Positions 1 to 24,111 of a DNA stretch of 42,079 nucleotides are shown piece by piece. The DNA lies in the NCBI GenBank assembly GCA_045635705.1, contig JAZTWE010000021.1:1-42079 (forward strand), in the 5' to 3' direction. The stretch's first letter is position 1. Each line of letters starts with the position of its first letter. The translations under genes and the position numbers were made by a program. This DNA comes from Candidatus Enterousia sp. (GTDB taxonomy: Bacteria; Pseudomonadota; Alphaproteobacteria; Rs-D84). Below the pieces are notes generated by a model, which worked only from the letters and a program-made list of their open reading frames with translations, was not told the DNA's origin and did not search any database.

Positions 1-1550
1 CCACGAACACGACCAAATGTTTCACCAACGACAAATACATCGCCGATTTTCAATGTACCTTGGCGCATCAGGATTGTTGCAACCGCGCCCAGACCTTTTT
101 CTTGTTTTGCTTCGACAACATAGGCGACGGCCGACATATCTGGATCTGCGGTCAATTCCATCATTTCGGCCTGTAATAAAATCGCTTCTTCCAGTTTATC
201 CAATCCAATCTTTTTAGTTGCTGAAATTTCAACGCACTGAACATCGCCACCAAATTCTTCGACCTGAACCTCGTGTTGCAACAGGTCTGTTTTCACGCGC
301 TGTGCATCTGCTTCGGGCAGGTCAATTTTGTTAATCGCAACGATAAACGGAACATTCGCCGCGCGAATATGGTTAATCGCTTCGACTGTCTGTGGCATAA
401 TTGAATCATTTGCCGCAACAACCAAGACAACGATGTCTGCCATTTGGGCACCGCGTGCACGCATTGCAGTAAATGTTTCATGACCTGGCGTATCCAGGAA
501 AGTAATCACTTCCCCTGATTTTGTTTTCACTTCATACGATGAAACATGCTGGGTGATACCGCCCGCTTCACCTGCGGTCACATTAGTATTACGGAATGCA
601 TCCAACAACGATGTTTTTCCATGGTCAACGTGCCCCACCACCGTCACAACTGGCGCGCGTGGTTTCAAGTTTTCAGGATTTGGTCCGCGTTCCAATTGAT
701 CGGCATATGGCTTTGTATCGACGCGTTTAACTGTTGCACCAAATTCACCTGCAATCAATTCTGCTGTATCGGCATCAATCGACTGATTCACAGATACCAT
801 CATACCCATTTCCATCAGTTTCTTGATAACATTACCGACCTTTTCCGCCATTGCCGCCGCCAAGTCCTTGACCGTAATTGTATCACCCAGTGTGACAACG
901 CGTTCAACCTTTTGTGGGGCAGAAAATACTGCGCGTGCTTTTTCACGGAATCGTTTCAACGACGCTTCGCTGCGACGACGATTTGCCCCACGCAGACCAA
1001 TTTCATCATCGTCATCATCATTTCCGATAACAATATCGTGCAGTGAAATCTTGCCCGACTTTTTGAAATCTTTCTTGGAATTATTATGCTTTGACTGGCG
1101 CGGACTATCGTCTTCGTCATTATTATAGTTCTTGCGACCATTACTTTGCGACGCATTTCCAGATTTCTTTGACGGGGCAACAACCGTCTTGGATTCTGGT
1201 TCTGCGGATTCAGCCTCGGCCGCGCTTTCACGCACCGCCAACTGTTCGCGCACTTGTTCGTATTCGCGTGCTTCGCGTTCAATTTCTGCTTCGCGTGCGG
1301 CGCGTGCGGCCGCTTCTTCTGCTTCGCGTTTACGCTTTTCTTCTTCACGCGCCTTGGCGGCTTCCAGTACTGCACGCAGTTTTTCATCTGCTGCATTTCG
1401 TGGTGTGGCCGATGGCGCCACAGGTTCATCACGCAGTTCCTTGCTGCCAGGTGCAACAACACGACGACGACGTTCAACGAAAACATCATCGCCTTTTTTG
1501 CTGCGAACCGCATCAATTGTCACAGATTTCCCAAGTGTTAGTGTTGCCAT
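1..1550 (-). CDS. infB: Translation initiation factor IF-2 (N-terminal part; runs off the window edge)
   Basis: Manual minus-strand translation from ATG at 1550 (GGAG upstream): MATLTLGKS... with G-domain motifs [54 protein letters not shown]. Not in the ORF track because there is no stop inside the window. Confidence 0.97.
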
Positions 1551-15685: not shown

Positions 15686-17899
15686 ATGGCTTCAAAGTTC
15701 AACTTTTTATCGATTTCCGGCAAAGGCAAAGGGTTGAAAATATTCAACTCGTCCAGCTACAAGGAACATGAACAAACCCCGATGGCCCGTATATTTTGGT
15801 CAATTCGTTGGGCAATTGGCATGTGGCTGGTTGCAGCGTTAATGTTTGCGGCATCATTTATCATTGAACACATTTGGCGATATGGTTGGTCCCCGGCCAG
15901 TCAACACTGGATGAACATATACCTGCAAAATATGTTGGCCACGGGCGGTCTATCTGTTATTGCAGAAATTCCCGCATGGATTGGTCGCTGTATTGCACGC
16001 CCCGACATTCCGTGCATAACCCCACTGTTTCCAATCATTGGTTATTATTTTCTGGCCGACGCCACATTAACCGACGAATTTAACCCACACGGCAAGGATA
16101 AATTTGCTGAAAAATCATCCAACAAGGCCAGCAAAGAAGACATTGAAAAAATGGGTCTGTTCGGCGGTTTTATGATGGTACTGGGATACTTCAAGAAAAA
16201 ACCATTGATGATGAAGGAATGCCTGTCCACCCTGTGCGTTGCCCCCCCAGGAACCGGTAAAACCGAAGGTGTCGTTATCCCAACAATTTTGGAATGCAAC
16301 GATGTTTCCATGATTATCAACGACCCAAAGCCAGAATTGGATTTGAAAACATCTGGCTATCGTGCAACCGTTGGGCCAGTATTCATTATGAACTGGGCAG
16401 GCCAGGACGATCCAGAACGCGGTATATACTACCCATCGTGGAATCCGCTATCCCCGGAACACGTCCCATTCGACCAGGAACAACGCGACCTGTACATTGA
16501 TGCATTGTGCAACACCTTGATTCCCGACAAAGAAGGATCATCTGCTGACCCACACTGGACAATTTCTGGCCGCGCCGGTCTGTCTGGCCTGGTACAATAC
16601 ATGGTGTCCAAGGTTGAACGCGCCAAGGCAAACGACTATTTCTATGCCCGCATATCAAACGGCACCTTTAATGCCGAAGATGCGGCTGTTTTATCTGATT
16701 ACTACCTATCAATGATAAGTGATCCGAACGCCTATGCGGCGCACGCCCTATTACAGCGCGGCGAATTAAACGCGATGAATTATGTTCATGTCGGCACATG
16801 GGCAAACATACCCGATGCATGGCGTGGCAAAGAAGCATCCTTGTCCATGATTCTTGACTGGTTAAACGCCAGCCAAATTGCCATCGCCCAGGACATCGAA
16901 GAACGCCGTCGCCAGGGTGATCAAATGGTTATGATGGCCGACCCAATGAAAGACCTGTTTCAAAAGGCTGTGGACGAAGCACGCCAGTATTCATACGCCC
17001 ACCGCGCGATACTTGAATTAACACAATTGGCAAACACACCCGACAAAGAACGTGGCTCTATCCTGTCAACAATCATGGCGGGGCTGGGCATTTTCCGCAA
17101 CGCCGCTGTTCGCAACCGCACCAGCCATTCTGACTTTCACTTTTCTGATCTGCGCGGTCTGCGCGACCCACGCGATGGCAAGATTAAACCCGTCACCGTC
17201 TATCTGTCCATCAACATGGTTGATGCCCAGGCATTAAATCCAATCACCGCAATATTTATTGAACTGATGACAAACTATCTGTTGGCAAATGCGCCCGAAC
17301 AATATCGCGACGGCAAACGCCTGGGACCATACCCTGTATTATTCGTGTTGGACGAAATGCCAAAAATGCAACGCCTGCAAGCGGTTATCCAGGGTCCCGA
17401 CCTGGGCCGTGGGCAAAAGATTTCATATCTGATTATTGGTCAGGACCTGCACCAAATTCAGGAAAAATACGGTGCCGATGCTGCCGCCACAATTATATCC
17501 ACCACTGCGGCCAAAATTGTTATGCGCCAAAACGACCCCGACACCGCGCAACGCTTTTCCACCATGATGGGCTATAAAATGAAAATGAAAACCGTCAAGG
17601 GGCCCGACGGCAAAGAAAAAGAAGAACCAGGTGAAGAATTATTATTCACCCCAATGGACATCATGAAAATGGCGGACGATAAACAACTGGTCATATTCCA
17701 GGGTTGGTATCATCGCCCGATTGAGGCTGACAAACAAATGGCATTCAAGGATCCAAAACTATCAAAACTGCGTGAAATGCCCAAGGCATCACCACTGCCC
17801 GAATTCTTGATTCCATCACACCATAAAATTATGGGATACAGTGGCGTGCCGAAAATATACGACAACGCCACCAAAGAAACAAAAGTTATAAATTTATAA
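15686..17899 (+). CDS. Type IV secretion coupling protein (VirD4/TraG family ATPase)
   Basis: N-terminal TM segments, Walker A APPGTGKT-x-GVVIPTIL, SMIINDPKPEL, WNPL, Walker B VLFVLDEMP, IIGQDLHQIQEKYG. Confidence 0.9.
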   Translation: MASKFNFLSISGKGKGLKIFNSSSYKEHEQTPMARIFWSIRWAIGMWLVAALMFAASFIIEHIWRYGWSPASQHWMNIYLQNMLATGGLSVIAEIPAWIGRCIARPDIPCITPLFPIIGYYFLADATLTDEFNPHGKDKFAEKSSNKASKEDIEKMGLFGGFMMVLGYFKKKPLMMKECLSTLCVAPPGTGKTEGVVIPTILECNDVSMIINDPKPELDLKTSGYRATVGPVFIMNWAGQDDPERGIYYPSWNPLSPEHVPFDQEQRDLYIDALCNTLIPDKEGSSADPHWTISGRAGLSGLVQYMVSKVERAKANDYFYARISNGTFNAEDAAVLSDYYLSMISDPNAYAAHALLQRGELNAMNYVHVGTWANIPDAWRGKEASLSMILDWLNASQIAIAQDIEERRRQGDQMVMMADPMKDLFQKAVDEARQYSYAHRAILELTQLANTPDKERGSILSTIMAGLGIFRNAAVRNRTSHSDFHFSDLRGLRDPRDGKIKPVTVYLSINMVDAQALNPITAIFIELMTNYLLANAPEQYRDGKRLGPYPVLFVLDEMPKMQRLQAVIQGPDLGRGQKISYLIIGQDLHQIQEKYGADAAATIISTTAAKIVMRQNDPDTAQRFSTMMGYKMKMKTVKGPDGKEKEEPGEELLFTPMDIMKMADDKQLVIFQGWYHRPIEADKQMAFKDPKLSKLREMPKASPLPEFLIPSHHKIMGYSGVPKIYDNATKETKVINL

Positions 17900-18793
17900 T
17901 CTGTTCAAAAACGCGATACAATCCATACCCGCGCTGCACCCTGTGCCAACCGCGGTTGCGATTTGCATCTTTAATTCAGAATGCACATCACCCGCAACGA
18001 ACATACCCGCCGGCAACGCAAATGGTGCCAAACGCCCAATCGCATCGCGTTTAATATCTTCGGACAGATAATCAGTATTCGCCTCGTGCCCAATGGCGAC
18101 AAACACACCATCAACAACCAATTCATCACCAGTATTTGTTGTCACAACCAATTCACCATCATCTGAATCTGGCTTTGGTGCAATTTTTGCCAAATCAGTA
18201 TTGAACAAGCATTCAATATTATCACGCGCCGCTACGCGATCGCGCAAGACCGCTTCGGCCCGGAAAAATTCGGACTTGCGATAAACAATTTTTACCGTCT
18301 TGGCCAAATCTGCCAGATACAGCGCATCATTTAACGCGGAATTCCCACCACCTAAAACAATAACTGTCTTGCCAGTGTAAAAGAACCCATCACATGTTGC
18401 ACAATACGAAACGCCCCGCCCCATCAATTCACGGGCGCCATCAATTTCCAGTTTGCGTGGTGATGCACCGGTCGCAACAATAACAGACCGACCATTATAT
18501 TCTGTGCCATTATCACCAACGACAACAAAACCATTTTCCGCGTCACCCGACACAGATTTTGCCGAAACAAATTCAACAACCGCACCAAACGATTCCGCCT
18601 GTTTTTTCATAAACTCGGCCAACTCCATACCACTGCCGGCCCAACCCGGGTAATTTTCCAATGTTGCAATACCTGCCATTTGACCACCCAAACGATCACC
18701 ACCCAGCACCAGTGTCTTTTTATTTGCGCGTGCTGTGTACAGTGCCGCTGTCAACCCCGCAGGCCCCGAACCTAAAATAATAACATCATACAT
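17894..18793 (-). CDS. trxB: Thioredoxin-disulfide reductase
   Basis: GSGPAGLTAALY, GVSYCATCDG, GGGNSA, GVFVAIG, FVAGDV. Confidence 0.9.
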   Translation of the reverse strand: MYDVIILGSGPAGLTAALYTARANKKTLVLGGDRLGGQMAGIATLENYPGWAGSGMELAEFMKKQAESFGAVVEFVSAKSVSGDAENGFVVVGDNGTEYNGRSVIVATGASPRKLEIDGARELMGRGVSYCATCDGFFYTGKTVIVLGGGNSALNDALYLADLAKTVKIVYRKSEFFRAEAVLRDRVAARDNIECLFNTDLAKIAPKPDSDDGELVVTTNTGDELVVDGVFVAIGHEANTDYLSEDIKRDAIGRLAPFALPAGMFVAGDVHSELKMQIATAVGTGCSAGMDCIAFLNRL

Positions 18794-18867
18794 TACGATA
18801 CCTTTCCTTTTGCATTCGCGGCAATCTTAGCACATCGCAACCACGCACGCAAACAAAATAAAACGCA

Positions 18868-18896
18868 TTGCATTTATGTTAAAAAAGTTCTATAAT
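18868..18896 (+). promoter_or_regulatory. Sigma70 promoter of the serS leader
   Basis: TTGCAT-17 nt-TATAAT. Confidence 0.75.
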
Positions 18897-18906
18897 TTTT
18901 CCTGAT

Positions 18907-18960
18907 ATGAAATTGATTTCTGTATTTTTTAGTCGTTCTTCATCCCCGTTGGGGGAATAA
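18907..18960 (+). CDS. Putative Ser-rich leader peptide of serS (MKLISVFFSRSSSPLGE)
   Basis: ATG AAA TTG ATT TCT GTA TTT TTT AGT CGT TCT TCA TCC CCG TTG GGG GAA TAA; 5 Ser codons; starts 10 nt after TATAAT and ends 86 nt before serS. Confidence 0.6.
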   Translation: MKLISVFFSRSSSPLGE

Positions 18961-19046
18961 TTTATCACACACTTTTTTCATTTATTAATTGCGATTTATA
19001 TCGCGCCATAATAAGATTATAAAAAAATTCAAAAGGAACTATAAAA

Positions 19047-20324
19047 ATGCTAGATATAAAATTTATTCGTGAAAATCCAGATGCTATAAAACGCGCCTGT
19101 GAATTAAAGGGCTTTACAGATTACACCGACCAAATACTGGCACTGGACGCACGCGTACGCGAATTAAAAACAATCACACAATCAAAAACCGCCGAAAAGA
19201 ACAAGATTACACGCGAAATTCCAACCGCCACTGACCGTGCACCATTGATTGCGCGCAGCAAGGAAATCGCCAACGAAATCGCCAACGACATGGCAGAACT
19301 GGCCGATAAAGAAGCAGTCTTGGACGATTTACTTCATCGCGTTCCACAAATTCCATCGCCCGACGCACCAATCGGTCGCGACGACAGTGAAAACATCGAA
19401 CTGCGTCGTGTCGGCACACCGCGCGAATTTGATTTCACACCACGCGCCCAGTGGGATTTGTTGGAAATGAACGGCTGGTGGAAACCTGAAAAAATCGCAT
19501 CAATTTGCGGCACCCGTACATACGCCCTGTTTGGCGAAGCGGCCGAACTGGAACTGGCGATTCAAACATATGTATTACAGAAACTGATGGCCAAAGGTTT
19601 TACATTTGTAAACTGTCCATCAATTACAAAACCACAAACAATCTTTAACGCTGGACACTTTATGGGCAGCGACCAATCAGTTATGGCAAATGATGTATTT
19701 ATGCTGACCGATACTGATCGTTGCCTGGCTGGGACCGCGGAAATCATTTTGAATTCCCTGCACAGCGACGAAGTATTAAACGAAAAAGACCTGCCTATTA
19801 AATACGCTGGCTATTCCCCATGTTTCCGCAAAGAAGCCGGTGCCGCCGGTCGTGACACCCGCGGAATCGTGCGTATACATCAATTTAACAAGGTCGAACA
19901 ATACATCTATTGCACACCTGAACAATCAGACGAAATGCACGAACATTTATTGAACAATCTGTGCGAAGTAATGGCGGATTTGGAATTGCCATATCGCGTC
20001 ATCACGGCATGCACTGGCGACATGGGATTCAACAAGGTAAAAATGAACGATGTCGAAGCCTGGTTCCCCAGCGAAAACGCATATCGCGAATTGGGTTCTT
20101 GTTCATCGATTGGCCAGTTTCAGGCACGTCGCACAAACACCCGCTATCGCGACAAAAACGGCAACATGCAATTCTGTGCAACATTAAACAACACTGGGAT
20201 TGCCCTGCCCCGTGCGATTGTGCCAGTAATTGAAAATCACCAAAACGCCGATGGTTCAGTAAATATTCCAAAATGCCTGCAACCATTAATGGGCGGCCGC
20301 ACCAAAATCGGCGGCAAACACTAA
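19047..20324 (+). CDS. serS: Serine--tRNA ligase
   Basis: MLDIKFIREN, LAGTAEI, CFRKEAGAAGRDTRG, HQFNKVE, YRELGSCS, TLNNTGIA, ENHQNADGSV. Confidence 0.96.
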   Translation: MLDIKFIRENPDAIKRACELKGFTDYTDQILALDARVRELKTITQSKTAEKNKITREIPTATDRAPLIARSKEIANEIANDMAELADKEAVLDDLLHRVPQIPSPDAPIGRDDSENIELRRVGTPREFDFTPRAQWDLLEMNGWWKPEKIASICGTRTYALFGEAAELELAIQTYVLQKLMAKGFTFVNCPSITKPQTIFNAGHFMGSDQSVMANDVFMLTDTDRCLAGTAEIILNSLHSDEVLNEKDLPIKYAGYSPCFRKEAGAAGRDTRGIVRIHQFNKVEQYIYCTPEQSDEMHEHLLNNLCEVMADLELPYRVITACTGDMGFNKVKMNDVEAWFPSENAYRELGSCSSIGQFQARRTNTRYRDKNGNMQFCATLNNTGIALPRAIVPVIENHQNADGSVNIPKCLQPLMGGRTKIGGKH

Positions 20325-20325
20325 T

Positions 20326-20356
20326 AAAAAAATCCCGCAGGTGCGGGATTTTTTTT
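20326..20356. terminator. Bidirectional intrinsic terminator
   Basis: aaaaaaatcccgca-gg-tgcgggattttttt between convergent genes. Confidence 0.85.
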
Positions 20357-20939
20357 ATCGTTGTAAATTGTTCATTAATTGTTTCAACGGGCGCACCAAC
20401 GGATTTGCCTCTTGAATATCGACCAAGGCCTGGGTCTGCTTTGCAATCTTTGTAATTGCATCTGAATACTTATTGGACTGCTTGCGCATATAATCACGCA
20501 TTGATGTACGATCGTATTCCCAGTTCTGAATATGTCCCGCCAGTTTATATAAATCACTATACATTTCTGGCGAATACGTTGCATTTCTGACCCCTTCAAT
20601 AAACACTTCGCGCGGACCATGGACAATATAGAATGCATCTGCAACATTCTTCATACCCTTGGCAGTCATACATTCAACTGCACGATTATTCCATTCGTTT
20701 TGGGTTGCCGTGCGTGAAAAGTGTTTGGCTGGATCTTTCATCACATCTTCCAGATAACGCAATACAACAACTGCATCACGACGATCATTCTTGGACAATG
20801 TATTCCAACGCTTTTTCAAATCTGAACGAATCAAGTAATAATAATTAAACAGTGCGATTTTAATTTGTGCATAAATAAAATCCACCCCATCAACATGATC
20901 ATTTAACACCGGACGACGATTTAATAAAGTTTTCTTCAT
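20355..20939 (-). CDS. Hypothetical 194-aa helical protein
   Basis: Start MKKTLLNRR with AGAGG upstream and a TTGACA...TATATT promoter-like sequence; no family recognised. Confidence 0.7.
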   Translation of the reverse strand: MKKTLLNRRPVLNDHVDGVDFIYAQIKIALFNYYYLIRSDLKKRWNTLSKNDRRDAVVVLRYLEDVMKDPAKHFSRTATQNEWNNRAVECMTAKGMKNVADAFYIVHGPREVFIEGVRNATYSPEMYSDLYKLAGHIQNWEYDRTSMRDYMRKQSNKYSDAITKIAKQTQALVDIQEANPLVRPLKQLMNNLQR

Positions 20940-21068
20940 ATAACACCTCTTGATCCCAACATGTTTAATATAGACAAACCTGCACAAATGTCAAGATTTT
21001 ATACATAAATTCTTGAAATTCATAATTTTTCATATAAAATTATCAGCCGATATAACAAAGGTTAATAC

Positions 21069-22901
21069 ATGAAAATTCGCAACATTGCAATTATTGCGCA
21101 CGTTGACCACGGCAAAACAACCCTGGTTGACAACATGCTGAAACAGGCGGGCACATTCCGCGAAAACGAACGCGTTGATGAACGCGTAATGGACAGCGGT
21201 GACATCGAACGCGAACGCGGGATTACAATTTCTGCCAAGCCAACATCCATTCAATGGGGCGAATACAAGATTAACATTGTGGACACACCGGGCCACGCAG
21301 ACTTTGGCGGCGAAGTAGAACGCATTCTGTCAATGGTTGACGGGGTTGTTTTGCTGGTTGACAGTGCCGAAGGTCCCCTGCCACAAACAAAGTTTGTATT
21401 ATCCAAGGCATTAAAACTGGGGCTGCGCCCAATCGTTTGTATTAACAAGGTTGACCGTGGCGATGCGCGTCCTGACGAAGTATTAACCGAAACATTTGAC
21501 CTGTTTGATAAACTGGGCGCAACTGATTCACAATTGGATTTCCCATATCTATATTCCGTGGGTCGTGATGGTTGGGCGGTACGCGATTTGAACGACGAAC
21601 GCAAGGACCTGACACCACTGTTTCAATTAATTGTTGATCATGTCCCTGCCCCCGATTGCAATGGCAGCCGCTGTCAATTGGATGCGCCATTTAAGATGCT
21701 GGCAACAACACTGGAAGCAGACCCCTATGTTGGTCGTATTCTGACCGGTAAAATTGAATCTGGGACCGTACGCGTTGGCCAGTCTGTCAAGGCCATCAAT
21801 CGCAACGGCGAATTTATCGAAAATGCCAAAATTACAAAAATCATTGAACATCGCGGCATTGAAAAGGTTTCCCGCGACACTGCATCTGCCGGCGACATCG
21901 TCGTCGTTGCTGGTTTTTCCAAGGCAACCGTGGCCGACACCTTGTGCGATCCATCTGTCACTGAACCTATTCCTGCGATGCCAATTGACCCACCAACCTT
22001 AACCATGACTTTCTTTGTTAACACATCCCCTTTGGCGGGCAAAAGCGGTAAAAAATTAACATCCCGTATGATTGGCGAACGCCTGTTCAAAGAAGCGGAA
22101 ACAAATATTGCATTAAAGGTTGAACAAAGCGAAAACAACGAAGCGTTCGAGGTTTCTGGTCGTGGCGAATTGCAATTAGGTATTTTGATTGAAACAATGC
22201 GCCGCGAAGGATTTGAATTAAGCGTCAGCCGCCCACGCGTTGTAATGCAAACAAACGAAAACGGCGAACGCCTTGAACCAATCGAAGATGTTGTAATCGA
22301 TGTTGACGATGAATTCAGCGGTGTCGTTATTGAAAAGATGACCAAGCGCAAGGCAACAATTACAGAAATGAAGGCATCTGGTGCTGGTAAAACCCGCATT
22401 GTGTTTTCTGCCCCATCACGCGGTCTGATTGGTTACCTATCTGAATTCCGCACCGACACACGCGGCACAGGTATTATGAACCGCGTATTTGATAAATACG
22501 ATGTGTACCGTGGCGCGATTCAACAATATCGTCCGGGCGTTTTGGTATCAATGGAAAAAGGCAGCGCCGCAACATACGCATTGTTTAACCTGCAACCACG
22601 CGGTACATTATTTATCGAACCCCAGACCGAGGTTTATTCTGGTATGATTATCGGCGAACACAGCAAAGAAAACGACCTGGAAGTAAATCCGATTAAGGGC
22701 AAAGAATTAACAAATATGCGCTCGGTCACGGCTGATGAAAAATTATTCTTGGCCCCACCACGCCGCATTTCACTGGAAGAAGCCCTGTCCTATATCTTGG
22801 ATGATGAATTGGTAGAGGTCACCCCCACAACAATTCGTCTGCGCAAGAAAGAACTGGACAGCAACACACGCAAGAAGTTAAAGAAACATATCGAAGAATA
22901 A
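21069..22901 (+). CDS. typA: Translational GTPase TypA/BipA
   Basis: IRNIAIIAHVDHGKTTLVD, DTPGHADFGGEVER, VSGRGELQLGILIETMRREGFE, DDELVEVTP. Confidence 0.97.
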   Translation: MKIRNIAIIAHVDHGKTTLVDNMLKQAGTFRENERVDERVMDSGDIERERGITISAKPTSIQWGEYKINIVDTPGHADFGGEVERILSMVDGVVLLVDSAEGPLPQTKFVLSKALKLGLRPIVCINKVDRGDARPDEVLTETFDLFDKLGATDSQLDFPYLYSVGRDGWAVRDLNDERKDLTPLFQLIVDHVPAPDCNGSRCQLDAPFKMLATTLEADPYVGRILTGKIESGTVRVGQSVKAINRNGEFIENAKITKIIEHRGIEKVSRDTASAGDIVVVAGFSKATVADTLCDPSVTEPIPAMPIDPPTLTMTFFVNTSPLAGKSGKKLTSRMIGERLFKEAETNIALKVEQSENNEAFEVSGRGELQLGILIETMRREGFELSVSRPRVVMQTNENGERLEPIEDVVIDVDDEFSGVVIEKMTKRKATITEMKASGAGKTRIVFSAPSRGLIGYLSEFRTDTRGTGIMNRVFDKYDVYRGAIQQYRPGVLVSMEKGSAATYALFNLQPRGTLFIEPQTEVYSGMIIGEHSKENDLEVNPIKGKELTNMRSVTADEKLFLAPPRRISLEEALSYILDDELVEVTPTTIRLRKKELDSNTRKKLKKHIEE

Positions 22902-24082: not shown

Positions 24083-24111
24083 AAAAAAAATCCCCCAAAC
24101 GGGGGATTTTT
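24083..24111 (-). terminator. Intrinsic terminator of ftsK
   Basis: aaaaaaaatccccc-aaac-gggggattttt right after the ftsK stop. Confidence 0.85.

Follow-up and report, generated by a model that had tools for sequence, protein, structure and literature searches.

The stretch of DNA analysed here (the window, 42,079 nucleotides in all) carries, shortly upstream of the seryl-tRNA synthetase gene serS, a short reading frame rich in serine codons. This arrangement raises the question of whether the frame regulates serS, and by what means. The near relatives, Candidatus Enterousia, are gut Alphaproteobacteria with genomes of less than 1 Mb, a lineage described in the available part of one study as lacking amino-acid biosynthesis (PMC12306168). 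We conclude that the element is very probably a leader peptide that senses Ser-tRNA and acts on serS. The complete account preferred here, in which a ribosome-mediated sensor of tRNA(Ser) charging sets serS expression and an open hairpin raises output, likely by transcription attenuation, has about an even chance of being correct.

The leader locus upstream of serS

The elements described in an earlier, sequence-only reading are real, although the coordinates that it implied are one base too high (Table 1). The TTGCAT-17-TATAAT pair (P1), the gap of 10 nt between TATAAT and the ATG, and the 17-codon frame (uORF) with five Ser codons can all be read directly, and the hairpin that overlaps the Ser run (hairpin 1), the G-free stretch, the small GCGAT/ATCGC hairpin and the Shine–Dalgarno (SD) sequence of serS were all located. 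The uORF ends 86 nt before the start of serS, whose identity is supported by NCBIfam TIGR00414 (418.9 bits, cut-off 301.65) and by Pfam PF00587 and PF02403.

Table 1. Positions of the leader elements and of serS within the window.
Feature	Position	Strand	Description and basis
P1 promoter (predicted)	18868–18896	+	TTGCAT 18868–18873, 17-nt spacer, TATAAT 18891–18896; read from sequence
Leader ORF (uORF)	18907–18960	+	17 codons and stop; ATG 18907–18909, TAA 18958–18960; peptide MKLISVFFSRSSSPLGE; Ser codons TCT 18919, AGT 18931, TCT 18937, TCA 18940, TCC 18943
Regulatory Ser codons (proposed)	18931–18945	+	AGT, (CGT), TCT, TCA, TCC; hairpin 1 starts with the last of these codons
Hairpin 1	18943–18956	+	TCCCC 18943–18947 / GGGGA 18952–18956, loop GTTG; 5 bp, GC-rich; hairpin scan and folding
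G-free, U-rich spacer	18956–18990	+	contains the stop codon (AAUAAUUUAUCACACACUUUUUUCAUUUAUUAAUU); sequence
P2 promoter (candidate, uncertain)	18989–19017	+	TTGCGA-17-TAAGAT; encloses the inverted repeat GCGAT/ATCGC (18991–19004)
Small hairpin		+	GCGAT 18991–18995 / ATCGC 19000–19004
SD and serS	19033–20324	+	AAGGAA 19033–19038, serS 19047–20324; sequence and profile matches

The uORF has no SD, and this feature, together with an ATG only 10 nt past the -10 element, suggests that the P1 mRNA is probably leaderless or nearly so. P1 is absent from the list returned by a generic promoter scan of the window because TTGCAT agrees with TTGACA at only three of six positions.

Hairpin 1 is a terminator-like entry in the window's scan, with the tail AAUAAUUUAU, and its stem-loop closely matches the standard terminator of the genome, AAAAATCCCCCGTTTGGGGGATTTTTT, which is seen in dozens of the rows listed. 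The sequence-only reading had held that no classical intrinsic terminator is visible. This stands for the U-tract, which is interrupted by the uORF stop codon, but not for the stem-loop. In this window, the interval from the uORF to serS yielded no working intrinsic terminator, and the second hairpin (GCGAT/ATCGC) has no U-run here and is missing from many serS leaders. An Rfam cmscan of positions 18000 to 20000 (E up to 10) returned chance-level matches only, for example to snoRNA and miRNA families, and a known Rfam family was rejected as an explanation of the region since none matches. In a scan of 13 aminoacyl-tRNA synthetase (aaRS) upstream regions (E up to 1), the matches were tRNAs and one partial T-box, with no Thr, His, Trp, Leu or Phe leader family; the serS leader itself had no T-box match, the single partial one lying elsewhere in the genome.

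Given the local base composition, the probability of at least five Ser in 16 codons is about 0.014, so a lone uORF of this kind is only mildly unusual, and the fold of the whole leader is unexceptional (z of -1.6 and -0.6). The serS leader of this genome is thus not compelling by itself; it is its conservation, together with sister leaders that carry cognate codons, that lifts the case above chance.

Conservation of the leader and its sisters before other aaRS genes

Conservation of a Ser-rich uORF ahead of serS, put up for checking with the earlier sensor proposal, is borne out: uORF and hairpin are present upstream of serS in 60 of 80 related species genomes (58 by pattern, 2 by eye) and in two of six loci from other families of the order (L026 and L028). 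An earlier set of same-genus loci had given 11 of 24. The leader is missing from 20 of the 80 genomes and 13 of the 24 loci, and is therefore dispensable. In two of the genomes that lack it (L056 and L062), a P1-like promoter lies directly 5' of the serS SD, which indicates that P1 serves serS. A short ORF in L025 (family f2), MKQISKISKVSH, with a hairpin over its stop, was judged doubtful and left uncounted. With the covariance model R1, scores reached only 15.6 bits for L026 and 13.4 bits for L028, and the model was for this reason rejected as a means of surveying the order; in the genome of the window, its matches downstream of the serS and thrS leaders and of both hisS leaders were dismissed as ordinary terminators or noise.

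Counts of frame, codons and stem are based on 63 distinct orthologous serS leader sequences. In all of them, a TTGnnn-17-TATAAT-like pair stands at the matching place, the -10 element and the uORF ATG are a constant distance apart, and the reading frame is kept, even through indels. The leader lies 88–117 nt ahead of serS in all 14 loci measured. The N-terminal part of the uORF diverges freely while the frame is kept, and the peptide is not conserved outside the Ser codons. Serine accounts for 276 of 1049 residues (26%), compared with 6.3% in the genome's long ORFs; the final two Ser are kept in 62 and in all 63 leaders, and a Ser follows FF in 53 (AGT 41, TCT 7, TCA 3, AGC 1, TCG 1). Both Ser codon families are thus in use at one position, and the comparison points to selection acting on serine and not on the RNA alone. 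The near-invariant TCA TCC could be due in part to an RNA-level constraint beside the stem. A second ORF, 3' of the hairpin and starting with AUC, was rejected, since its start position reads GUC, UUC or CAG in other leaders.

A relative's contig, about 91% identical, shows 3 differences from the window in the leader region (18842–19084) but 24 over the following 124 nt of serS. Two RNA runs (shares 0.15 and 0.13) are represented by contigs only and are uninformative on starts, ends and levels; one contig, from a relative, spans 18717–19252, and another, of 172 nt, falls within serS.

The same genome carries leaders with cognate codons before thrS, hisS, trpS and ileS, the codons standing at the same place as Ser in the serS leader. 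The thrS leader (MILFESFFTTTTTTPLGV) has six Thr and the same CCCCGTTGGGGG hairpin and is conserved in 25 of 28 loci. The hisS leader exists in two copies (..FHHA plus hairpin) and was found in 19 of 21 genus loci by script and in one more by eye, and the trpS leader (..KCWRIAA plus hairpin) in 10 of 23. Before ileS, the peptide MKQATIIIIR, with four Ile, precedes a GC hairpin (GGGCGC-AUAC-GCGCCC) and a U5 terminator; 23 of 24 genus loci carry it by script, and one more has a GTG start. The sister genes were identified with NCBIfam, the ileS-like gene by a Pfam PF00133 match and a frame of 1008 aa. A genome-wide scan for a promoter-like site followed by a run of at least three identical residues gave 33 rows, and all three of those before aaRS genes were cognate. 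The survey covered the aaRS genes of PF00133, PF00587, PF00152 and PF00579, with other families, such as those for Glu, Arg, Cys, Phe and Ala, outside it, so that the list of leaders may be incomplete. A uORF (MKNLLKRFN) with a terminator-like hairpin, but no clear cognate run, also lies before a PF00152 gene on contig C5.

Cognate codons before five aaRS genes are what a ribosome-mediated sensor of charged tRNA predicts, and the four further genes, with the same design, thus support the mode of sensing that the sequence-only reading had proposed. With their shared F-rich stretch, hairpin type and promoter spacing, the five leaders resemble copies of one module and probably form one homologous family in this lineage.

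Their hairpins vary in sequence and retain their pairing. The UCCCC/GGGGA stem is present in 55 of the 63 serS leaders, and L028 shows one double compensatory change (UCCGC/GCGGA); the U-A pair of serS becomes A-U in thrS, and hisS has several stems. Over the serS, thrS and hisS leaders, in rows that were pre-selected, 85 of 85 cells pair and two of the five pairs covary. A AAUAAUUUAU-like sequence follows the hairpin in most of the 63 serS leaders. The stem begins with the last Ser codon, as it does with the corresponding codon in the Thr and Trp leaders, and the His codons end 0–2 nt 5' of it. The codons of the serS, thrS, trpS and hisS leaders therefore appear to be sited where a stalled ribosome would disrupt the hairpin.

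How tRNA charging may be coupled to serS output

In the proposed mechanism, the P1 mRNA would begin at the first uORF codon, or within about 3 nt of it, and a ribosome would translate the 17-codon frame. When charged tRNA(Ser) is scarce, it would stall with Ser codons 11–13 in the A site. The leading edge of a ribosome reaches about 12–13 nt ahead and would here cover the 5' arm of hairpin 1, which would remain open. With good charging, the ribosome would reach the stop codon, 2 nt beyond the hairpin, and depart, and hairpin 1 would close. An open hairpin would lead to more, and a closed one to fewer, P1 transcripts that yield SerRS. The likeliest route would be transcription attenuation, in which hairpin 1 and its U-rich tail would serve as a pause or terminator element. 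How the state of the hairpin would bear on serS output is the least certain part of this account, and the placing of the output in termination or pausing at hairpin 1 is tentative, a little more apt to be wrong than right.

The difficulty is one of geometry. Any ribosome between about codon 10 and the stop masks hairpin 1, and by the spacing in expressome structures, a ribosome at the stop forces RNA polymerase about 25 nt or more beyond the hairpin. It follows that hairpin 1, by itself, cannot work as an intrinsic terminator whose stem opens when the ribosome stalls and closes when translation is fast, and that a second output element is needed; a comparison of leaders by eye and constrained folds yielded none. 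When the ribosome footprint was forced to be single-stranded, folds of the serS, thrS, hisS, trpS and ileS leaders gave no alternative helix, and a classical trp-type antiterminator (segment 2 with segment 3) was rejected on these grounds. Likewise, no downstream complement to the freed 3' arm of hairpin 1 was seen by eye in the serS, thrS and hisS leaders, even though the arms vary.

The same sensor might instead act through Rho, the route suggested in the sequence-only reading, in a tna-like manner. Once a fast ribosome had left at the stop, Rho would load on the naked G-poor, pyrimidine-rich leader RNA and halt the polymerase ahead of serS or in its first part. If the ribosome were held at the C-rich Ser codons, part of the loading site would be hidden, and hairpin 1 would be a pause giving the ribosome time to catch up. 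Genome G000 (contig C39) and 30 of the 31 genomes searched have a Rho gene, the G-free spacer runs for 35 nt, the stretches of Ser and Thr codons contain many C and few G, and the lack of a working intrinsic terminator between uORF and serS in this window also fits. However, a parked ribosome leaves the G-free stretch past the stop uncovered, and a closed hairpin 1 would hide the C-run from Rho and not expose it. Moreover, C-rich codons are lacking from the leaders for Ile (AUA/AUU) and Trp (UGG), and the ileS leader contains an ordinary intrinsic terminator, so that the idea does not generalise, and we consider it unlikely. A translational output, of the type of the mycobacterial polycysteine sORFs or of ermC, is in our view quite improbable. 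Here the U/C-rich middle of the uORF would pair with the SD and start of serS, and a stalled ribosome would free the SD. In the full-leader fold of this window, 18919–18939 is indeed predicted to pair with 19033–19053 (SD and start codon), and when masking by a stalled ribosome is modelled, the probability that the ribosome-binding site is unpaired rises from 0.27 to 0.84, with similar predicted effects for L004 and the trpS leader; for Cys sORFs the mechanism has been demonstrated, according to the part of the report available (10.1101/834739). Yet a gain of at least 0.2 at one or more stall positions is limited to 7 of 17 leaders, and the ten leaders that show none include thrS, hisS_C41, ileS and six serS orthologues. 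The pairing is also A/U-rich, in a fold with a z of only -1.6, and hairpin 1 is left without a role. Masking of the ribosome-binding site was accordingly rejected as the general output.

The P1–uORF–hairpin unit could also act on the downstream P2 instead of contributing serS mRNA, charging altering either the traffic of P1 polymerases over P2 (promoter interference) or the stability of read-through mRNA under a parked ribosome. Such an arrangement would remove the logical difficulty of attenuation at hairpin 1, and promoter-like pairs do lie directly 3' of the hairpin: besides the TTGCGA-17-TAAGAT of the serS leader, clearer ones are found, by eye, in nearly all thrS leaders (TTGCGN-17-TATAAT) and in hisS leaders (TGATATAAT). 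L062 combines a -35 of the P1 type with a -10 of the P2 type, as though the module had been deleted from between two promoters. P2 of this window, on the other hand, does not exceed chance (score 8.5, p 0.58), and p is 0.05 or lower in only 11 of 61 serS tails, a mononucleotide shuffle being a weak null. Since the codons touch the stem in hisS and trpS, stalling must open the hairpin there, and interference alone gives the wrong sign; we give this reading little chance. Finally, the element might have no part in regulating serS: the ORF could have arisen by chance across the remains of a terminator, or the locus could be a small gene that acts on other targets through its peptide or a short RNA. 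The weak single-sequence statistics and the loss of the leader in many relatives are in line with this, as is the trp leader of Sinorhizobium, whose RNA and peptide, in the portion of the literature available, function in trans. The cognate-codon rule in five aaRS genes, the constant linkage to serS across families, the two Ser codon families at one position and the free drift of the peptide beyond its Ser codons speak against it and make it very improbable.

Relation to known leaders and biological meaning

In Firmicutes, serS is regulated by T-boxes, which contain no ORF, bind tRNA directly and raise aaRS expression when the cognate tRNA is uncharged. The leader described here would perform the same task through an ORF, and shows no T-box match. 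In the pheST leader (pheM) of Escherichia coli and in the classical attenuators (trp, his, thr, leu and ilv), the first hairpin takes up cognate codons of a short ORF in its 5' arm, and a stop is nearby. The serS leader likewise has a short ORF rich in cognate codons, which extend into that same arm, and a stop close to the hairpin. It differs in that no antiterminator/terminator pair was found, in its predicted leaderless and not SD-led start, in its small size of 17 codons and one 5-bp hairpin, and in its amino acid, serine, for which no precedent was found.

The premise of the sequence-only reading that leader peptides control pheST, which is named in the part of PMC1262725 available, and amino-acid operons proved too narrow: leader ORFs before trpS, ileS, leuS, alaS and thrS are reported in the accessible portions of three papers (PMC1262725, PMC4117421, PMC8079986). 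Its remark that it knew of no characterised serS leader peptide agrees with our search of the full-text literature, which found none; supplementary tables and Vitreschak et al. (2004), outside the scope of that search, could hold earlier predictions for alphaproteobacterial aaRS genes.

Leaderless leader peptides have been described before alaS, thrS, trpS and leuS in Streptomyces lividans TK24 (PMC8079986), and trpS and leuS attenuators have been predicted in Streptomyces (PMC1262725). As far as the sections seen of these papers go, the likeness is close: the ORFs are leaderless, of 12–22 codons with few cognate ones, and are followed by a hairpin, often with no clear U-run, and the trpS peptide ends in ..LWRAA there and in ..CWRIAA here. 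In contrast, the Streptomyces leaders belong to Actinobacteria and not to Alphaproteobacteria, include no serS or hisS case in those sections, and the five leaders here look like one copied module. Among Alphaproteobacteria, leader CDSs are reported on the trpS and ileS mRNAs of Caulobacter crescentus (PMC4117421) and a leaderless trpL in Sinorhizobium meliloti (PMC10117765). These resemble the present case in the translated small ORFs before aaRS genes and in the leaderless leader ORF within an attenuator, respectively; the parts of the two reports available mention no serS case, and the comparison is made at this level, apart from their sequences and mechanisms.

The ilvB leaders of Corynebacterium, Mycobacterium and Streptomyces are similar in that the regulatory codons of their short ORFs run into a candidate terminator hairpin for which an antiterminator is not obvious, and the authors, in the text available, call the mode of regulation unclear (PMC1262725). 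Those leaders precede biosynthetic operons and have poly-U after the hairpin, whereas here an aaRS gene is concerned and the stop interrupts the U-tract. The minimal one-hairpin layout thus exposes a gap in textbook attenuation, the same gap that was noted for these actinobacterial leaders. Mycobacterial polycysteine sORFs, in the part of the report available, offer another parallel: they too are leaderless sensory ORFs in which a stalled ribosome blocks an RNA structure, and at several loci they respond to one amino-acid signal, forming a 'ribulon' (10.1101/834739). Unlike the leaders here, where this feature is inconsistent, their structure hides a downstream ribosome-binding site, and it is a different amino acid at each locus that would be read in the present family.

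A bolder view, which we regard as rather unlikely, is that, in a gut symbiont with a reduced genome, a single cassette was copied before at least five aaRS genes and re-aimed by codon change. Its parts would be a strong promoter, an F-rich leaderless ORF, the cognate codons and a hairpin of the standard terminator type whose U-tract contains the stop; re-aiming would be exemplified by UCA UCC becoming ACA ACC, with the closing pair changing from U-A to A-U. The parked ribosome would decide whether polymerases from the sensor promoter cross the gene's own promoter, a few bases further downstream, or stop short of it. If this is true, the output would differ from the classical choice between two hairpins, a mechanism undescribed for amino-acid sensing, and a ribosome-read 'aaRS ribulon' would stand in for T-boxes in an organism unable to make amino acids.

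Returning to the sensor of tRNA(Ser) charging, the serS leader would, if this reading is correct, be the first leader peptide to read serine. The five sister leaders constitute a natural swap experiment, with the same frame and hairpin and different codons, which makes the rule linking codon to specificity directly testable. That a lineage with a genome of less than 1 Mb keeps such sensors at at least five synthetase genes suggests that the balance of tRNA charging is among its few indispensable regulatory tasks.

The serS leader and its orthologues

The promoter, uORF, Ser codons and hairpin described in the sequence-only reading were confirmed, with some of its implied positions one base too high. 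The Ser codons of the uORF are TCT, AGT, TCT, TCA, and TCC. Taken as a single sequence, the leader is hardly above chance: finding at least five Ser among 16 codons has a probability of 0.014 under the local base composition, the leader folds no better than its shuffles (z -1.6 and -0.6), and no Rfam family matched the region. Since there is no space for an SD 5' of the uORF, the mRNA would be leaderless or nearly so, provided that P1, the motif pair upstream of the uORF, is its promoter.

Features of the serS region (window positions) and related elements on other contigs (C-numbers) of the same genome
Feature	Position	Strand	Remarks
VirD4/TraG-like type IV secretion coupling protein	15686-17899	+	PF02534, PF12696, PF10412; upstream
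Thioredoxin-reductase-like flavoprotein gene	17894-18793	-	divergent neighbour of serS
P1 -35 TTGCAT	18868-18873	+	sequence reading
P1 -10 TATAAT	18891-18896	+	sequence reading; 17 nt after -35
Leader ORF MKLISVFFSRSSSPLGE	ATG 18907, stop TAA 18958-18960	+	start 10 nt past -10
Hairpin 1, TCCCC-GTTG-GGGGA, 5 bp	18943-18956	+	begins with last Ser codon TCC, 18943-18945
G-free stretch	18956-18990	+	sequence reading
Promoter-like pair after hairpin 1	18989-19017		
Small inverted repeat GCGAT/ATCGC	18991-19004	+	directly 3' of G-free stretch
SD AAGGAA of serS	starts 19033	+	sequence reading
serS	19047-20324	+	TIGR00414, 419 bits; Pfam
210-aa ORF	20355-20987	-	no Pfam match
TypA/BipA GTPase	21069-22901	+	downstream
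Terminator AAAAATCCCCCGTTTGGGGGATTTTTT, examples	near 24083-24105	-	
	C4:9372-9399		
	C34 around 18886-18929		
thrS leader	C7:22283-22465		L132, outside the window; TTGATT-17-TATGAT, 7 nt, ATG, uORF MILFESFFTTTTTTPLGV
hisS leaders	C41:7216-7352		..FHHA + hairpin
	C32 about 353-450	-	..FHHA + hairpin
trpS leader	C42:4557-4679		..KCWRIAA + hairpin; uORF MLRNVIFSVAKCWRIAA, Trp codon inside stem; TIGR00233
ileS leader	C6:16415-16526		MKQATIIIIR, GC hairpin, GGGCGC-AUAC-GCGCCC-U5 terminator; before 1008-aa ileS-like gene
PF00152 gene (lysS- or asnS-like)	C5:3462-4487	-	preceded by ORF MKNLLKRFN, then terminator-like hairpin with U7
Partial T-box match	C11:16423-16459	-	upstream of PF00152 aspS-like gene; contains AGGGUGGCACCGCG

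Two overlapping sets of serS loci jointly gave 63 distinct leader sequences. The first covered 41 genomes surrounding that of the window, 24 from the same genus and 16 from five other families of the order; on reading the upstream regions, a homologous uORF ending in the same hairpin was found at 11 of the 24 same-genus loci and at two loci from other families, L026 (MMEINLSLFVVSRMSSPVLG) and L028 (MIHVKKRFIVSFSSSAMRG), with the doubtful locus L025 left out of the count. The stem of L028 is UCCGC/GCGGA, a double compensatory change. In most of the 13 same-genus loci without the leader, serS directly follows the reductase gene on the same strand. The second set comprised 80 species genomes (83-96% SerRS identity), animal-gut MAGs titled Candidatus Enterousia or "Alphaproteobacteria bacterium." Candidatus Enterousia is reported to belong to the order Rs-D84 and to have genomes below 1 Mb that lack amino-acid biosynthesis (PMC12306168). 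The Ser-rich uORF, whose conservation in relatives the sequence-only reading had proposed to check, was present in 60 of these 80 genomes (58 by pattern, two by eye).

Across the 63 leaders, the promoter pair is kept, as is, by eye, the distance of about 7-10 nt between the -10 and the ATG; the N-terminal half varies freely with the frame maintained, and an F-rich stretch leading into ..S-x-x-S-S-P-[LF]-G-E-stop is retained. Ser accounts for 276 of 1049 residues (26%), compared with 6.3% in the genome's long ORFs. The last two Ser 5' of the stem are found in 62 and 63 of the 63 leaders, and a Ser follows FF in 53 (AGT in 41, TCN in 11, AGC in one). The AGY and TCN codon families are not interchangeable by one silent step, and the use of both after FF argues for selection on decoding rather than on RNA letters. 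In an RNA-library contig from a relative, about 91% identical, 3 differences fall across the leader (18842-19084), against 24 in the adjoining 124 nt of serS, and 14 plus 3 insertions in 93 nt on the opposite flank; this one comparison points the same way.

Two leader-free genomes (loci L056 and L062) carry a P1-like promoter directly 5' of the serS SD and, from this arrangement, P1 can be said to serve serS. Both loci resemble clean deletions, with the P1-like -35 joined to the region before the SD, which suggests that the leader has been lost repeatedly by recombination between two similar promoters.

Cognate leaders before other synthetase genes

A covariance model built from 11 serS leaders was used to search the window's own genome. 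The serS leader scored highest (57.5 bits), followed at 22.6 bits by a site before a class II synthetase gene, thrS (TIGR00418, 570 bits), where six Thr codons lead into ACCCC-GTTG-GGGGT, 89 nt 5' of the gene. The next matches precede two copies of hisS (TIGR00442), whose uORFs, MTDKNIIFAVFHHARVGEY and MIKKLNIFSVFHHAQLGGY, place His-His against a GC hairpin. Over 94 residues the two copies share 91% identity, and one of them sits on a 3-kb contig; instead of a true duplication, they may stem from mixed strains in the assembly. The trpS leader was detected by a scan for a promoter, short ORF and hairpin, and further aaRS genes were located with four Pfam models, which brought the ileS leader to light. 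In total, a leader matching the gene's own amino acid precedes five of the 13 aaRS genes located; none was seen before the other eight, among them a C5 gene with a short ORF of unclear nature. This ORF, which lacks a clear cognate run, may represent another type of leader. When the whole genome was scanned for a promoter-like site with a run of three identical residues, 33 rows were returned, and the three before aaRS genes were all cognate.

The thrS leader was found in 25 of 28 loci (22/22 in the genus, 3/6 in other families), after one contig-start locus and one partial match were dropped. For hisS, with two partial matches dropped, the script recovered 19 of 21 genus loci, plus one by eye with a GTG start, and 0/7 in other families; for ileS, 23 of 24 genus loci, plus one with a GTG start, and 0/6 elsewhere. 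For trpS, 10 of 23 genus loci have the leader, and another three rows from the script were deemed spurious. We regard these sister leaders with cognate codons as the decisive comparative evidence for the reading of the serS leader. Upstream of the aspS-like gene on C11, the T-box match covers RF00230 positions 183-216, and its 25.3 bits fall far short of the gathering score of 93; if real, it would place a T-box-like element before one aaRS gene and leader peptides before others in one alphaproteobacterium.

The hairpin sequence differs between leader families while the predicted pairing stays. The serS stem is UCCCC/GGGGA in 55 of 63 leaders, while one leader shows a double compensatory change and another a broken stem; its closing U-A pair is A-U in thrS, paralleling the codon change from UCC to ACC, and the hisS stems include GCCC/GGGC, GCCAC/GUGGC, and CACGCUG/CAGCGUG. 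In 17 rows from three families, 85/85 cells pair and 2/5 pairs covary, and pairing falls to 33-64% when the partner is slid; the rows were pre-picked with a hairpin finder whose stem and loop lengths were fixed, which biases the count towards pairing. The stem-loop is also the genome's ordinary terminator, AAAAATCCCCCGTTTGGGGGATTTTTT and close variants occurring in dozens of rows. It seems to have given rise to the leader hairpins, in which a stop codon and a U-rich tail replace the U-run (serS AAUAAUUUAU, thrS GUGUAAUUUCU, trpS UAAGUCUUUUUU). The terminator itself is bidirectional and recurs dozens of times genome-wide in nearly identical copies, as if one module had spread through the genome.

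From proposed ribosome stalling to serS output

In toeprint and footprint data, a stalled ribosome covers about 12-13 nt ahead of the A site. A ribosome awaiting Ser-tRNA on codons 11-13 would therefore reach the 5' arm of hairpin 1, as would ribosomes stalled on the Thr, His, and Trp leaders; an unhindered ribosome would meet the stop 2 nt past the stem and depart, allowing the hairpin to close. Because of this anatomy, the leader is very probably a Ser-tRNA sensor acting on serS, and the ribosome-mediated sensor proposed in the sequence-only reading is well supported by the orthologues and sister leaders. Homeostasis, together with all known aaRS leaders and T-boxes, suggests that stalling would give more serS.

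The link from hairpin 1 to serS output is not established, and the simple picture is flawed. Between about codon 10 and the stop, a translating ribosome would mask the hairpin, and expressome structures place the polymerase at least about 25 nt past the stem once the ribosome is at the stop; hairpin 1 could thus not on its own be an intrinsic terminator "closed after fast translation" while the polymerase is over the U-tail, and any model that has the oncoming ribosome simply block termination gives the opposite sign. In classical attenuators, a second pair of segments resolves the masking problem. Constrained folds of the leaders gave no alternative helix, no downstream complement of the freed 3' arm was seen by eye, even in hisS with its variable arm, and no U-run goes with the second inverted repeat in the window, a repeat that many serS leaders lack. 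As the likeliest route, we tentatively propose transcription attenuation centered on hairpin 1, which would act as a pause or terminator element that the stalled ribosome holds open.

The same sensor could act through Rho, as the sequence-only reading suggested; its gene is present and the tail is G-free, but this route is rather unlikely: the stalled ribosome would leave that tail uncovered, and the Ile and Trp leaders lack C-rich codons. Still less probable is release of the serS ribosome-binding site, as reported downstream of mycobacterial Cys sORFs (10.1101/834739); such release is predicted for the window's leader, where the unpaired probability of the site rises from 0.27 to 0.84, but for only 7 of 17 leaders. 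We give equally little credence to control of traffic across a second promoter, P2; promoter-like pairs do lie 3' of the hairpin (TTGCGA-17-TAAGAT in serS, clearer in thrS and hisS), but the serS candidate is not above chance. These pairs, in the window and in the thrS and hisS leaders of loci L132-L154 and L193-L213, have an inverted repeat in or beside the spacer, such as GCGG-UGCG-CCGC within TTGCGG-17-TATAAT in thrS. The arms of the repeat change together from one genome to another (GCGG/CCGC, GCGC/GCGC, GCAC/GUGC, GACAU/AUGUC), suggesting that it is an RNA hairpin and not a protein operator.

Relation to known leader peptides

An established case of a leader peptide before an aaRS gene is pheST of E. 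coli. Others have been reported in several bacteria: predicted attenuators of trpS and leuS in Streptomyces (PMC1262725), leaderless leader peptides of alaS, thrS, trpS, and leuS in S. lividans (PMC8079986), and, in Caulobacter, leader CDSs that are translated from the mRNAs of trpS and ileS (PMC4117421); a leaderless trpL is described in Sinorhizobium (PMC10117765). In actinobacterial ilvB, regulatory codons likewise lie over a terminator hairpin with no antiterminator, a mechanism that its authors call unclear (PMC1262725). Full-text literature searches found no serS leader peptide, although an earlier prediction is possible. The serS leader is one of five aaRS-gene leaders that look like re-aimed copies of one another in a genome-reduced gut symbiont, and its added interest lies in this five-gene family and in a minimal layout outside the textbook attenuation mechanism.
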